A stretch of DNA of 64,000 nucleotides, taken from the NCBI GenBank assembly GCA_026391855.1, contig JAPLDE010000028.1, forward strand, positions 297-64,296, in the 5' to 3' direction. Below, piece after piece: positions 37,977-44,884 of the stretch; position 1 is the stretch's first letter, and each line of letters opens with the position of its first letter. Made by a program: the position numbers and the translations under genes. A model generated the notes under the pieces. The model was not told the DNA's origin. It ran no database searches and saw nothing but the letters and a program-made list of their open reading frames with translations. Source of the stretch: Bacteroidota bacterium. GTDB lineage: Bacteria; Bacteroidota; Bacteroidia; Bacteroidales; CAIXZF01.

Positions 37977-39593
37977 TTAGAACCGCCTACTTACGCTAAG
38001 GTACAGCTGGTTATAGCGATATTGTTTTTCAAAAGTTCCTTCCGCAAAAAGTGAAAGCGAAAGCTTTTTCACTATCCTCCAGGTCAGGTTGAGTTCTCCC
38101 ATATGTTGGGGTAGATTTTCTTCCGAGAAGAAGTAATGGTAATCGACATAGCGGTAGGCTACTTCTGAAAATAGTTTTCCTGCGATCAAATCCTTTGAAA
38201 ATCCGAGACTGTAAATGTTCCCTTTTAAATAGCTTGTTTCCAGCAATGTAGCTGACAAAGTAGCAGATACATTGATCCCTGGTAGTTGGTTACAGGTCAG
38301 GAAGGCGTAAAGATTTTTGGATGGTTTCGGGTCATTTTTCTGTGTCCGGTAACCGGTGGTGGCACCCAGTGAAATTTTCCTGAAAGGCTGATAGTTGAAC
38401 TGGAACATGTATCCCTGCTGGTTAATGGTCTCTAAAAGCCTTTCGACCAATGTTTTATACGATTCGTAGTAGATGATGTTTTCCCTGGCACTGTATGAGG
38501 TTGACAGGGATAGTTGGTTACTGACTTTGTATCGCAGCGAGAGGTATGTATTGGTAAGGCGTGGGCTGTTATCCTGTTTTTCAGCCACTTTTTTATAGAG
38601 GTCGACTTCTATTGAACCAAAAAAGTACAAGTTGCGGACCAGGGAGTTTGAATGCTGGAAATAGCTGAACCTACGGTCGGTTTTTCCCGAATTCTGCTGT
38701 TCGACCAGGGCAAGGGTGCTTTGCATCGAACGGTTTTTAAAGGTATAATCATGACCGATATAACCGCCGAACTGCATCAGTTTAGTATTAACACTATAGT
38801 CGTTCAGATCGGGCCGGAACCCGGTGATAATGCCGGTAGTGATGGAGTTGCTCCTGAACTCCAGCTGCAATCCGTCGATGGCACCGGCATTGGACATCCT
38901 GGGGTTTATTTTCCGGCCAAACCATAACAGCAGGTTCGGAGAAAAGACATAGTTCAGAGCCAGGCTGTATATCTTTAACCCGTTGAAAATGTTGCTTTTA
39001 ACCTGTTCCCATTGTTTATCACTGTGAACAAAACAAATGTAGCTTTCGGCTGATAGTTTAGAGTTACCCAGATTTTTTGCCTCAAGTGCCAGCGTATACC
39101 GCATTCGTTGGTAATTTCCGGCAGGAGTATTGGACAGGTTAGAATAGGAGCCGATGGAAAGCCTGCCCGTCACCCTTTGTTGGAGCGGGCCCTGAATGGT
39201 TTTTTCCTGTTTTTCCTGACTTCTTTTTTCAACTTGGGTGGGCGGTTTCTGGTCATTGGCAGAGGTTGAGGGTGTGGCTTTTTCTTCCTGTTTAGCTTCA
39301 GGTTTCACTTTAGCAACGATCCGGTCTGAAACTGCCGGTTTTACCAAGGATAAGGGCAAACAAACGCAAGAAGTGGAAGAAAGTTCCCTGATCACCAGGG
39401 AAGGCAGCAGTTTGTCTCCCTGCTTCACATATAAGGTGTCACCTGCAGTCAGATTTTCTGTTGAGGAGAATTTCACATATACATTTTGCGGAGTTACATA
39501 CGATACGGTTCCCTCAAGGATTCCCGGCAAGGGTTGGGCATGAAGACAAATTCCGGCAAAAATAGATAATAAAAAAAGAAATAAGATTCTCAT
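37977..39593 (-). CDS. Outer-membrane beta-barrel protein, putative porin of a porin-cytochrome complex
   Basis: Signal peptide, small N-terminal domain, low-complexity linker, ~400 aa of amphipathic strands ending LSVSRRF. Last gene of the cytochrome operon. Confidence 0.75.
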   Translation of the reverse strand: MRILFLFLLSIFAGICLHAQPLPGILEGTVSYVTPQNVYVKFSSTENLTAGDTLYVKQGDKLLPSLVIRELSSTSCVCLPLSLVKPAVSDRIVAKVKPEAKQEEKATPSTSANDQKPPTQVEKRSQEKQEKTIQGPLQQRVTGRLSIGSYSNLSNTPAGNYQRMRYTLALEAKNLGNSKLSAESYICFVHSDKQWEQVKSNIFNGLKIYSLALNYVFSPNLLLWFGRKINPRMSNAGAIDGLQLEFRSNSITTGIITGFRPDLNDYSVNTKLMQFGGYIGHDYTFKNRSMQSTLALVEQQNSGKTDRRFSYFQHSNSLVRNLYFFGSIEVDLYKKVAEKQDNSPRLTNTYLSLRYKVSNQLSLSTSYSARENIIYYESYKTLVERLLETINQQGYMFQFNYQPFRKISLGATTGYRTQKNDPKPSKNLYAFLTCNQLPGINVSATLSATLLETSYLKGNIYSLGFSKDLIAGKLFSEVAYRYVDYHYFFSEENLPQHMGELNLTWRIVKKLSLSLFAEGTFEKQYRYNQLYLSVSRRF

Positions 39594-39603
39594 TACCAGT
39601 TTA

Positions 39604-41082
39604 TTAGTGTTTCTTGGGATGGGTTATTCCTTCTTTAACATGTTGGTGACAGGAATAACAGGCATCGCTGTTATAGGAATACCCGCTGACCCCGTCATGG
39701 GAATTATTGGTTTCTGACTGGGTATGGCAGGTAATGCAGGTAAACACACTGTAATCGCTGGTGTTGGGATGGCAGTCGGCGCATGTGTTCCAGTGACCCT
39801 GGTGTTTGCCTGAATAAATGTTGAAATAAAGACCGTCGTGGTTAAAGGTTGCCGGAGTCCATGAGCTTTGGGAGTGACAGGTGGCACAGTCGGTTGGGAA
39901 CTGGGCAGCTGCATGGTTTGGGTTGGAGGTCTGGTTATAATCGTTTTGGTGGCATCCTACACAGGTAACCGGGGTTCCGGAACAACCGTTGGGGTGGCAT
40001 TTGTTACAGGTCAGGGTTGTATGAGTTCCGGAAAGCATATAACCGGTGGTGCTATGGTCGAAAGTGGCGGGCTGCCAGCCGGGATTGGTGGTATGACAGC
40101 TGGCACAGTTTTGAGAGATATTGCAGTTGGGGTGATTAGGGTTGGTTGTGGCATTGTAGTTTGGCAGGTGGCAGCCCAAACAGGTGCTGGGTGTGCCCGG
40201 ACAACCGTTTGGATGGCATTTGTTGCAGGTAACCGTTGTGTGGGCCCCGGTCAATGGGAAAGGTGTCGTATTATGATCGTACAAAGCAGGTTGCCAGCCT
40301 GGGTTGGTTGTGTGACACTGGGAACAGTTTGTCAGGAAATTGCAACCGGCATGATTAGGGCTGGTTGTTGCATCATAGTTTGGTTTATGACAGGAATAAC
40401 AGTCCTTTGAAATGTGGAAACTGCCATTCGGATGACATTTGGCACATTCCACATTGGCGTGACCCAGGGTAAGCGGGAAGAAGTTATGGTTAAAACCGCC
40501 GGCTCCCCAGTCGAAGGCAGTGATCTTATGACATTCCTGGCAATTAGTGGAAAAGTCGGCCGTAGTATGATTCGGATTGGTTGTTGATACATAATTTGCC
40601 TTATGGCAATCATAACACTCCACTCCAAGAGGTTCGAAGTTGAGCAGTGATCCGGATTTATGGCAACTGAAGCAATTGGCAGTCGCATGCGGGCCTGCCA
40701 GCGGGAAACGGCTTTGCCGGTGGATTTGGGTGACATTGGTTACCAGCCATGAGTCGGGCGTATGGCAGCGGGAACAGTTGAGCCGGACCGATTGGTTATG
40801 GAAATCGGTATGACAGTCGGAACATTCGGTTTTGGCCTCGGAAAAAACCAGCGTAGGGTGGCATTGTTTACATCGGGTTTCCCGGTGCTGTCCTTTAAGC
40901 GGAAAGGCAGTGGTATTATGGTTAAAGATAATCGTTTTCTGGTTTACTTCCCAACTCGTGGAGTTGTGACAGAGCATGCAGTTAAGCTTAAAATCGCTGC
41001 CATGAGGGGAAGGCCTGCTTAGGGTTAACGACATAGTAACCACCGCCAACCCTACCAATATTAAGAATGACAGTTTTCGCAT
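39604..41082 (-). CDS. Multiheme c-type cytochrome, 19 CxxCH
   Basis: 19 CxxCH counted, H-x3-FPL-x-G-x-H distal-His repeats, N-terminal hydrophobic signal. Confidence 0.95.
   Translation of the reverse strand: MRKLSFLILVGLAVVTMSLTLSRPSPHGSDFKLNCMLCHNSTSWEVNQKTIIFNHNTTAFPLKGQHRETRCKQCHPTLVFSEAKTECSDCHTDFHNQSVRLNCSRCHTPDSWLVTNVTQIHRQSRFPLAGPHATANCFSCHKSGSLLNFEPLGVECYDCHKANYVSTTNPNHTTADFSTNCQECHKITAFDWGAGGFNHNFFPLTLGHANVECAKCHPNGSFHISKDCYSCHKPNYDATTSPNHAGCNFLTNCSQCHTTNPGWQPALYDHNTTPFPLTGAHTTVTCNKCHPNGCPGTPSTCLGCHLPNYNATTNPNHPNCNISQNCASCHTTNPGWQPATFDHSTTGYMLSGTHTTLTCNKCHPNGCSGTPVTCVGCHQNDYNQTSNPNHAAAQFPTDCATCHSQSSWTPATFNHDGLYFNIYSGKHQGHWNTCADCHPNTSDYSVFTCITCHTQSETNNSHDGVSGYSYNSDACYSCHQHVKEGITHPKKH
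39943..40380 (-). repeat. Intragenic tandem duplication of a 219-bp (73-aa, three-heme) module
   Basis: aa 235-307 and 308-380 share TTxPNH...CHTTNPGWQPA...DH...G.HTT.TCNKCHPNGC.GTP.TC.GCH. Confidence 0.9.
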
Positions 41083-44014: not shown

Positions 44015-44017
44015 CTT

Positions 44018-44884
44018 TTAAAATATCCATTTGTAACCAAAGGTAATGGTTACAGCAACATGAATGATCATAATGATCAACATCACAAAGGCAAAGGGCA
44101 GATGAGCCACATGCCAGTATCTGAACAGGTTTTGCATGGATACCAAACGGTCGATCCTGCGATTCAGTGAAATATCATTTTTCACCAGGCGAAGGATCAT
44201 ACGGTTTTCATGGCGGGTAAGGGTGTTATTCCTGAGGATGGATTTCACCTTAACTATGGTTTTTCTGTCTTCAAAGTATTTTTTTAAGTATCCGGTTATC
44301 AGATTGTTATGGTACTTTCCTGCCTTTTTTCCGGATGAATCAAGGATTATCGTAATGTTTTCTTCAGGAAGGTGGTAGGAGGTTCTCAGGGTTTCTCCGA
44401 TATCTGATTTCATATTTCTTATCTCACTGAGGCTGAGTTCCCGTCCTTCAATGGTTCTGGGGATCTGGAGGTAGATAAACCTGCCGATCACTCCGCTCAG
44501 AAATACGGCCACCATGCTCCAGAAACTGACAGCCACCAGTCCGCCAAACTTGAAGGAAGTATGGAAGAGAACCAGGATCGGGCCGAGTGTACAGAGAAAA
44601 ATATGGAATTCAAGCCATTGACTTAATACCCCCAGACGGGATAAGGCGCGCATTCTTTTTCTTATAATATAGGTAACAACCCCCAGCAGTATGAAAAATG
44701 ACCCGATGATACCAATACCATGCCCGATAAACCCACTGGGTTTTAGCTGAAGATGATCAGGATGGAAAAATCTCTCCTCAATGCTTGTATTATAATAAGA
44801 AAACCCCCTGTAAATGAGGACGATGGTGGTGACAACAACCAGGGCTGTCATTATATATATAAAGGTTTTATGGAACCCGGTCAT
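44018..44884 (-). CDS. Ferric-reductase-like integral membrane protein, putative heme b
   Basis: About six TM helices with in-membrane His: GHGIG, WLEFHIF, LFHTSF, WHVAHLP, IIHVA. Confidence 0.8.
   Translation of the reverse strand: MTGFHKTFIYIMTALVVVTTIVLIYRGFSYYNTSIEERFFHPDHLQLKPSGFIGHGIGIIGSFFILLGVVTYIIRKRMRALSRLGVLSQWLEFHIFLCTLGPILVLFHTSFKFGGLVAVSFWSMVAVFLSGVIGRFIYLQIPRTIEGRELSLSEIRNMKSDIGETLRTSYHLPEENITIILDSSGKKAGKYHNNLITGYLKKYFEDRKTIVKVKSILRNNTLTRHENRMILRLVKNDISLNRRIDRLVSMQNLFRYWHVAHLPFAFVMLIIMIIHVAVTITFGYKWIF

Follow-up and report, generated by a model that had tools for sequence, protein, structure and literature searches.

A Bacteroidota variant of the PCC3-type porin-cytochrome cluster with an obligate Fe-S flavoprotein, a candidate NAD(P)H entry point

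Introduction

The porin-cytochrome systems MtrCAB/CymA of Shewanella and OmaB-OmbB-OmcB of Geobacter share the idea of periplasmic and outer cytochromes joined via an outer-membrane barrel, and their electrons enter through a quinol dehydrogenase. A further type, PCC3, is a four-gene bioinformatic prediction with a hypothetical quinone link, and has been discussed for Fe(II) oxidation in Proteobacteria (PMC5566968; PMC9900912). Here we describe a five-gene relative of PCC3, hereafter the cassette, in a Bacteroidota bacterium of the order Bacteroidales (assembly GCA_026391855.1). It lies in a stretch of 64,000 nt, hereafter the window, that covers positions 297 to 64,296 of the forward strand of contig JAPLDE010000028.1; unless another replicon or contig is named, coordinates are those of the window. 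The cassette encodes an inner-membrane protein (IMP), an Fe-S flavoprotein, two multiheme cytochromes (cytA and cytB) and a putative outer-membrane barrel. We hold it to be somewhat probable that these proteins form a trans-envelope conduit that acts as a quinone-independent electron sink, carrying electrons outward from NAD(P)H to the outside.

For the IMPs of PCC3 and PCC4, He, Barco, Emerson & Roden (2017; PMC5566968) gave a signature of five transmembrane (TM) helices, SGXXG on TM4, and WX3HX13H on TM3 and TM5. In Sideroxydans ES-1 the PCC3 genes are down-regulated on Fe(II), which argues against Fe(II) oxidation as the PCC3-type role; genes flanking PCC3 are not listed in the supplement to that transcriptome. 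PCC4, or ptdABCDEFG, is a putative cluster to which no function has been assigned, and is alone among these descriptions in naming cytoplasmic partners, a FAD/NAD(P) oxidoreductase and an Fe-S protein, besides an IMP (PMC5566968; bioRxiv 10.1101/2023.11.21.568154). Novel putative porin-cytochrome clusters in Bacteroidetes have been noted without detail (PMC6344600; bioRxiv 2020.04.01.018762), and a Lentimicrobium cluster with 61 + 20 hemes has no synteny to characterised porin-cytochrome clusters (PMC13013709); the latter fits the cassette type described here.

Results

The cassette and its match to PCC3

ORF calling returned five co-directional genes on the minus strand of the window, in the order IMP (288 aa; 44018-44884), Fe-S flavoprotein (445 aa; 42677-44014), cytA (530 aa; 41061-42653), cytB (492 aa; 39604-41082) and putative outer-membrane β-barrel (538 aa; 37977-39593), with successive intergenic distances of 3, 23, −22 (an overlap) and 10 bp. 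These are exactly the near-contiguous genes delimited in a first-pass annotation of the window, and the 39 c-type hemes claimed there were recovered as 20 CXXCH motifs in cytA and 19 in cytB, where typical Cys and His frequencies lead to an estimated chance expectation of ~0.002 CXXCH per ~1000 residues.

Set against the published description of PCC3, the window IMP has every feature given for PCC3 IMPs (~300 aa, 5 TM helices, SGxxG and W-x3-H-x13-H). The conserved cytochrome of PCC3 has a median of 21 hemes (21-27), and cytA has 20; the variable cytochrome is repeat-built and Thr/Ser-rich, with ~25-30 aa per heme and a median of 34 hemes, compared with 19 in cytB and 13-64 in its relatives. 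In both cases a barrel gene, putative in the cassette, stands beside two very heme-rich cytochromes, and the PCC3 gene order of IMP, periplasmic cytochrome, extracellular cytochrome and porin (Slit_1446-1449) is also that of the cassette, apart from the flavoprotein. The cassette differs from PCC3 in having this obligate fifth gene between the IMP and the cytochromes, and in being hosted by Bacteroidota. On the published description, the most suitable place for the cassette is within the PCC3 type, as a variant from Bacteroidota that has a fifth, obligate component. The descriptions of PCC3 that we found do not mention the flavoprotein, and a literature search combining PCC3 with flavoprotein terms returned nothing. 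As a correction to the first-pass annotation, the IMP, cytochromes and barrel cannot be called undescribed, since they match published PCC3, and porin-cytochrome clusters of Bacteroidetes and Lentimicrobium appear in papers on metagenome-assembled genomes (MAGs).

Co-occurrence of the five genes across phyla

Relatives of the IMP number in the thousands, with 62-72% identity in Bacteroidales MAGs. A species scan with one genome per species gave at least 571 IMP loci, and we read the cassette content in the best 80. In these, the cassette was present wherever the flanking sequence sufficed, save for a few genes that were frameshifted or missed by the ORF filter. Besides the IMP and the flavoprotein, a typical cassette encodes a ~530-aa cytochrome with 20 hemes, a variable cytochrome of 13-64 hemes, sometimes accompanied by a second one, and a barrel-like protein of ~540 aa. 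Ten further loci from other families of the same order, including two single-contig genomes, have the same genes, some copies being frameshifted or interrupted, so that the all-five-gene cassette is found in ~90 other Bacteroidota loci (80 + 10). The barrel gene is invariably retained beside the cytochromes in the loci examined. The first-pass annotation had supposed that related clusters probably exist elsewhere, and had regarded it as damaging to its proposal if the IMP and flavoprotein usually occurred without cytochromes; the five genes do stay together elsewhere, and cytochromes were present in every best-80 locus with enough flank.

Of 401 genomes sampled evenly across the order, 39 have the IMP. 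All of these 39 also have, in each case next to the IMP gene, a close homologue of the flavoprotein (49-71% identity). The sole extra flavoprotein match in this sample is a 41%-identical paralogue that lacks the ferredoxin domain and resides in an IMP-less genome. Phylum-wide, the frequency is 44 of 401. The cassette is absent from the three other genomes of the same genus and is thus accessory; an insertion boundary was sought in these three genomes, in which the flanking M1 peptidase is ~60% identical, but there was no synteny.

Relatives that could be named came from Bacteroidota, Ignavibacteriales, Gemmatimonadota and Acidobacteriota. The gene set and order of the window recur unchanged in a Gemmatimonadaceae genome and also, with an extra 273-aa cytochrome, in a relative of unknown phylum that is 30% identical. 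In an Ignavibacteriales genome the same five genes are rearranged as IMP, two cytochromes, barrel and, last, flavoprotein. A locus from an Acidobacteriota clade encodes a 993-aa AMIN-domain protein with barrel-like sequence and a 273-aa ORF, followed by an adjacent IMP and flavoprotein, with a 23-heme cytochrome alongside. Within a cultured strain, Emticicia oligotrophica DSM 17448, the cassette is carried on the 100-kb plasmid pEMTOL02 (NC_018749.1, 78197-90781; locus L105), where it comprises the IMP, flavoprotein, 23-heme and 40-heme cytochromes and barrel, directly preceded by ccsA and followed by a gene for a GW-domain protein. This copy looks like a portable, self-sufficient module.

A more distant arrangement occurs on a plasmid of Methylophaga pinxianii (NZ_CP095734.1, 25047-28401; locus L106), which encodes a reductase, a 252-aa IMP homologue and a 7-heme cytochrome, with a full ccm operon nearby and no barrel. 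The IMP homologue, whose gene lies between those of the reductase and the cytochrome, is a true one (hhalign probability 98.9%). The reductase is of the ferredoxin-NADP+ reductase (FNR) type, with FAD_binding_6, NAD_binding_1 and 2Fe-2S domains, and is hence NAD(P)H-type but different from the cassette flavoprotein. Judged by sequence, this trio is a smaller relative with the same input logic, in which the reductase has undergone non-orthologous replacement. We reasoned that the strongest argument for a cytoplasmic reductase of the pyridine-nucleotide type as the functional partner of the IMP is that the gene content survives rearrangement, and that one type of reductase replaces another. Near-perfect co-occurrence, together with content that is kept despite changes of order across phyla, marks the cassette as non-random, and on this basis we conclude that the five genes are a real functional unit.

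Two disrupted copies were also seen. In locus L098 (G003:C8) an opposite-strand 263-aa ORF splits a truncated IMP gene from the flavoprotein gene, and in locus L102 (G297:C24) both of these genes are broken by frameshifts or stops; either these copies are decaying or the breaks are assembly errors.

The Fe-S flavoprotein

Pfam and NCBIfam matches divide the flavoprotein into an N-terminal TM helix, a Fer4 dicluster domain and a Pyr_redox_2/3 (YpdA/TrxR-like) part, bearing out the membrane-anchored ferredoxin/TrxB-like flavoprotein that had been proposed from the first reading of the sequence. Neither a Sec signal nor a Tat motif was found. The TM helix is directly followed by a basic stretch, KQKRNSK, and because of this the C-terminal part is predicted to be cytoplasmic; the anchor would be oriented N-out/C-in, with the cofactor domains tethered to the membrane on its cytoplasmic side. 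The nature of these cofactor domains likewise speaks for the cytoplasm.

The Fe-S domain has two unusual motifs, C63-x2-T66-x2-C69-x3-C73-P and C94-x2-H97-x2-C100-x3-C104-P (43700-43828, minus strand). Position 66, which would be the second Cys of the first motif, is Thr or Ser in 74 of 76 aligned homologues, most of them from Bacteroidota, and is the canonical Cys in Gemmatimonadota, Ignavibacteriales, the Acidobacteriota clade and the copy at locus L090. His97 in the second motif (CxxHxxCxxxCP) is invariant in all 76 homologues and in all other phyla examined. One cluster is probably [3Fe-4S] or Thr-ligated, and the other would be an invariantly His-ligated [4Fe-4S] cluster.

In the flavin part, the motifs GAGPAG and GGGD(A/S)A are conserved (GGGDAA in the window copy), and a redox-active CxxC is absent. 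All seven Cys of the protein are accounted for by Cys18 in the TM helix and the six Fe-S ligands, leaving none in the flavin part. The closest solved structures are those of YpdA/Bdr (7a76/7a7b), then thioredoxin reductases and TrxR-type FNRs; the TrxR-type FNR structures 2zbw, 3ab1 and 3lzw match at E-values of 1e-16 to 1e-11, ranked behind YpdA. Neither equivalog level is reached: the score is 164.8 against TIGR04018 (YpdA/Bdr bacillithiol-disulfide reductase; cut-off 339.9) and 96.2 against TIGR01292 (thioredoxin reductase; cut-off 343.45). TrxR-type FNRs (YumC, Chlorobaculum FNR) have a TrxR fold with two dinucleotide motifs, no CxxC and a ferredoxin partner. The flavoprotein, with its two motifs, its lack of CxxC and a ferredoxin fused in cis, may act like such an enzyme. 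The motif context suggests NADPH as the donor. TrxR-type FNRs are reversible enzymes. Midpoint potentials of −0.285 V and −0.240 V are among the values given for the FAD of such FNRs (PMC9137726, PMC11121358), values that would suit a protein relaying electrons between NAD(P)H and centres of the Fe-S or heme type.

Residues 126-144 of the flavoprotein, RDNFETNVPGIFIAGELGG (43583-43639, minus strand), align with the C-terminal FAD 'GD' motif of YpdA, yet precede the N-terminal GxGxxG. The flavin domain therefore appears to be circularly permuted.

The inner-membrane protein

The IMP has about five TM helices and 12 His; TM4 and TM5 are separated by ~110 aa that form a helical insert on the cytoplasmic side. 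From an alignment of 47 sequences from several phyla, AF2 gave a confident model (pLDDT 82.8); an earlier model from a shallow alignment was too poor (pLDDT 64) and was discarded. The helices of the retained model span residues 3-31, 52-77, 87-108 and 115-140, followed by the insert and a long helix that ends in TM5 (~258-282). Across Bacteroidota, Gemmatimonadota and other lineages, W90, H94, H108, S130, G131, G134, W257, H258, H261 and H275 are invariant. They make up the motifs W90-x3-H94-x13-H108 on TM3 (44561-44617, minus strand), S130-G131-x-x-G134 on TM4, and W257-x3-H261-x13-H275 on TM5 (44060-44116, minus strand), which match the PCC3/PCC4 signature exactly (PMC5566968).

Two His pairs spaced in this way on TM3 and TM5 (H94/H108 and H261/H275) are the arrangement that characterises ferric reductases and NOX enzymes, and have the geometry expected for two stacked b hemes, which we regard as putative. 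With the basic loop RKRMR placed inside by the positive-inside rule, the predicted positions of H94 and H261 are close to the cytoplasm and those of H108 and H275 close to the periplasm. Sub-threshold Pfam matches among 47 members of the IMP family were to DUF4405 (30/47), Ni_hydr_CYTB (11/47) and Ferric_reduct (7/47). Ferric_reduct (PF01794) is absent from the window IMP itself, and the best sub-threshold E-value among those seven relatives is 9e-4.

The cytochromes and the barrel

Signal-peptidase-I-type signals are present on all three exported proteins, that of cytA being a Sec signal peptide. CytA is Lys-rich, and with 20 CXXCH it has 44 His and 2 Met; cytB, with 19 CXXCH, has 43 His and almost no Met. 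These His counts, together with the scarcity of Met, fit bis-His hemes of the wire type, and no catalytic heme motif such as CXXCK is present in either protein. Both match generic multiheme families only in Pfam and NCBIfam, and they score 34.6 and 15.5 bits against TIGR03508 (MtrA/DmsE), well under its cut-off of 192.2.

The number of hemes in cytA is exactly 20 in 68 of 78 homologues and 23 in five, and the mature N-terminus, QISPG, is conserved. CytA is the conserved partner, with a probable location in the periplasm. CytB is rich in Thr, Ser and Asn (12% Thr), has 25.9 aa per heme, and is built from 73-aa tri-heme repeats with a spacing of 15/25/33. Its homologues have 13 to 64 hemes, most often 13+3n, and the counts for the variable cytochrome are 1 mod 3 in 35 of 63 cases (window and L010-L104 homologues). 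Counts of 13+3n fit expansion and contraction by the 73-aa repeat. CytB, the variable partner, is possibly threaded through the barrel or exposed at the surface. The traits of cytA and cytB are those published for, respectively, the periplasmic and the extracellular cytochromes of PCC3.

The 538-aa protein consists of a signal peptide, an N-terminal domain of ~95 aa, a low-complexity linker and ~400 aa with ~20 amphipathic β segments, and its C-terminal residue is Phe in 51 of 56 homologues. These features fit a putative outer-membrane β-barrel (porin). No Pfam family, MtrB_PioB included, and no PDB relative was found for it by profile search.

The host genome

The source genome comes from lake-water metagenomes. 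Mis-binning of the contig was considered and rejected: its GC content (0.440) is close to that of the genome (0.443), and among 59 large contigs it ranks third in closeness of tetranucleotide profile to the genome mean. For cytochrome c maturation, a point left open by the first-pass annotation, the genome encodes a fused CcsBA (1083 aa) and has two more CcsA-family genes. The same annotation took the lineage to be nominally fermentative, a view that we abandon, since the genome has two complex-I-type gene sets, cytochrome bd and 15 further ORFs with ≥3 CXXCH. Because complex I sets and cytochrome bd are present, the source organism is a respiring one, not merely a fermenter. No match to Rnf/Nqr (PF02508) or menA (TIGR00751) was found in the genome, of which ~6% is missing; a different type of quinone pathway may be present, or the pathway may be encoded in that missing part. 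A second heme-rich locus, outside the window (own-genome contig C107:12289-30935), has ORFs with 19, 14, 11, 5, 5 and 4 CXXCH and stands directly beside the fused CcsBA.

Discussion

Taking the gene content, motifs, co-occurrence and predicted topology together, we infer cofactor binding, direction of flow, acceptor and surface exposure as follows. NAD(P)H would reduce the FAD of the membrane-tethered TrxR/FNR-type flavoprotein, from where electrons would travel via its two unusual Fe-S clusters to a first heme b of the IMP, which H94/H261 would hold at the cytoplasmic side, and across the membrane to a second, held by H108/H275 at the periplasmic side. From there they would enter the conserved 20-heme bis-His cytA, spanning the periplasm, and move onward to the variable 19-heme cytB, which would be seated inside the outer-membrane barrel or past it. 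An oxidant outside the cell or at its outer surface would finally accept them; examples are minerals of Fe(III) or Mn(IV), humics and a partner cell. Such flow would be electrogenic without conserving energy, as in NADPH oxidase, and its benefit would be regeneration of NAD(P)+.

This proposal shares its working principle with the NOX/FRE and MsrQ-Fre systems, in which electrons from cytoplasmic NAD(P)H pass via a flavin to a pair of b hemes, bound by TM3 and TM5 through H-x13-H pairs, and on to an acceptor on the outer side, and in NOX/FRE too the flow is electrogenic with its energy not conserved. The differences are that NOX/FRE proteins have six TM helices whereas the IMP has five, and that NOX/FRE uses an FNR-type flavoprotein whereas that of the cassette is a separate polypeptide of the TrxR type with a ferredoxin domain. 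We give a little less than an even chance to the more specific idea that IMP and flavoprotein are an unrecognised, quinone-independent 'split NADPH oxidase' of diderms, a ferredoxin-FNR fusion docked on a new class of di-heme-b protein and feeding 39 to >80 hemes across periplasm and outer membrane. PCC4/ptd resembles the cassette in having a porin, multiheme cytochromes, a 5-TM H-x13-H protein and cytoplasmic FAD/NAD(P) and Fe-S proteins, and hence a cytoplasmic reductase feeding a conduit. However, the cassette is not a PCC4 member: PCC4/ptd has 4-, 5- and 10-heme cytochromes whereas the cassette has only the 20- and 19-heme ones, its 2x[4Fe-4S] protein is separate and cNMP-binding whereas the Fe-S domain of the cassette is fused to the flavoprotein, its flavoprotein is of another type, and its IMP belongs to a different sequence family according to He et al. 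(PMC5566968). Unlike MtrCAB, MtoAB and PioAB, the cassette has no member of the MtrA/DmsE, MtrB/PioB or NapC/CymA families; its cytochromes carry roughly twice as many hemes as those of MtrCAB and Geobacter, or more, its outer cytochrome has no lipoprotein signal, and a flavoprotein stands where those systems have their quinol dehydrogenase.

Several observations weigh against outward flow from NAD(P)H through the cassette. The proposed binding of heme b by the IMP is argued from its motifs, and the IMP itself has nothing above the Pfam or NCBIfam thresholds, no PDB relative by profile search, and no meaningful Foldseek match of its model in the PDB (best E 0.33, TM ≤ 0.28). The family profile gives an hhalign probability of 0.5% with E. 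coli MsrQ and 0.1% with E. coli YodB, a b561-type protein, and since these comparisons show no relation we rejected membership of the IMP in the FRD and b561 families. Of the ferric-reductase-like character assigned to it in the first-pass annotation, the two invariant W-x3-H-x13-H pairs stand, whereas family membership fails in Pfam, in hhalign against MsrQ and in Foldseek. The IMP may work like a ferric-reductase domain yet is not a detectable member of that family, the likeness being one shared motif feature; having no solved structural relative, it may represent a new fold for transmembrane electron transfer. Pfam searches and alignments revealed no conserved lipobox and no C-terminal domain of the type IX secretion system (T9SS) on cytA, cytB or the barrel, so that surface exposure of the cytochromes is unproven. 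Evidence that the flavoprotein gene is transcribed is weak, a single contig of 168 nt (window 43757-43924, zero differences) in a metatranscriptome made from the lake-water sample that also yielded the DNA. As the first-pass annotation had anticipated, no biochemical characterisation of any cassette member was found in the literature. Outward flow would cost membrane potential in a genome that already has two complex-I-type sets and cytochrome bd, and its selective benefit is therefore not evident. The cassette also occurs in Gemmatimonadota and Emticicia, which we take to be aerobic lineages; its role may therefore be something other than anaerobic mineral respiration. Finally, He et al. (2017; PMC5566968) proposed a quinone-linked, inward (Fe(II)-oxidising) model for IMPs of the same signature.

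If that published model is applied to the cassette, the IMP is a cytochrome-b-type protein linking the multiheme chain to the menaquinone pool, as quinol oxidase or quinone reductase, and the flavoprotein acts either as a feeder, auxiliary or alternative, or as a regulator. The genome, with its complex I and cytochrome bd, must have a quinone pool, and the weak Ni_hydr_CYTB-type Pfam matches in some members of the IMP family point the same way as the shared signature. We nevertheless regard a quinone link as unlikely. It leaves unexplained why the IMP is adjacent to a cytoplasmic Fe-S flavoprotein in 39 of 39 genomes, why the flavoprotein is retained when the gene order changes, and why a distant branch of the IMP family has swapped it for another NAD(P)H-type reductase; moreover, no quinone-site motif was identified in the IMP, which the b561 comparison above also leaves without a relation to that type of protein. 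Electron uptake, in which extracellular donors such as Fe(II), reduced humics, cathodes or partner cells would deliver electrons via barrel, cytochromes and IMP to a flavoprotein that reduces NAD(P)+, agrees with the reversibility of TrxR-type FNRs and with the history of PCC3, which was first found in Fe(II) oxidisers and proposed for electron uptake. We rate it lower still: reduction of NAD(P)+ (about −0.32 V) from Fe(II) is strongly uphill, an inside-negative membrane potential opposes inward movement of electrons, and no energy-coupling element is visible in the cassette. The down-regulation of PCC3 genes on Fe(II) in Sideroxydans ES-1 speaks against uptake as well, as do the hosts, most of which we assume to be heterotrophic Bacteroidota.

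A third alternative keeps the electrons in the periplasm, with the ~39 hemes acting as an electron store (capacitor) or as a reductase for a soluble substrate that enters via the barrel, and with nothing exposed at the surface. This would agree with cytochromes that have neither a lipoprotein nor a T9SS sorting signal, with a barrel that has no detectable relation to MtrB-type sheaths, and with hosts in lineages that are presumably aerobic. It seems to us about as improbable as uptake, given that the barrel gene is invariably kept beside the cytochromes, that catalytic heme motifs such as CXXCK are missing, and that the second cytochrome has expanded by repeats to 13-64 hemes, as He et al. describe for the extracellular cytochromes of PCC3 (PMC5566968).

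The cassette is widespread, and published descriptions of such clusters omit an NAD(P)H-type entry protein. If the 'split NADPH oxidase' idea is correct, the PCC3 clusters of the literature would have five components and work as NAD(P)H:extracellular-acceptor reductases, rather than oxidising Fe(II) by way of a quinone link. About a tenth of the sampled Bacteroidota genomes, as well as members of Gemmatimonadota and Acidobacteriota, would then own a portable, sometimes plasmid-borne, extracellular electron sink. A flavoprotein that feeds the conduit would reverse the presumed direction of electron flow in PCC3 and assign to it a concrete, testable function, and a sizeable part of the environmental Bacteroidota (lake, sediment, digester) could dump reducing equivalents onto minerals, humics or partner cells, with relevance for carbon turnover, iron cycling and possibly interspecies electron transfer. 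It would also be a third means for diderms to connect their metabolism to the exterior, the other two being quinol dehydrogenases (CymA/ImcH/CbcL type) and fused porin-cytochromes (e.g. Cyc2). The plasmid copy in Emticicia oligotrophica DSM 17448 makes the question experimentally accessible in a cultured strain.

Sequences around the cassette

A gene for a 1032-aa sensor histidine kinase (44905-48003, minus strand) ends 20 bp upstream of the cassette on the same strand. The protein has Reg_prop β-propeller repeats and Y_Y_Y, HisKA and HATPase_c domains. We considered the kinase as a cassette member and rejected it, as it is not conserved beside the cassette in other loci; it may be a lineage-specific regulator, or unrelated. 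Within the kinase gene, 46054-46323 is matched by a contig of 270 nt that comes from a different RNA run. In a scan for promoters and terminators, terminator-like sites were at chance level; the promoter model was that for sigma-70, which may not be the promoter type of the host. Bacteroidota use promoters of a type other than that covered by a sigma-70 scan. Elsewhere in the window, three proteins carry Por_Secre_tail, the T9SS C-terminal sorting domain (27930-31094, plus strand; 31931-32929, minus strand; 54103-56373, minus strand), and the organism is for this reason one with type IX secretion.

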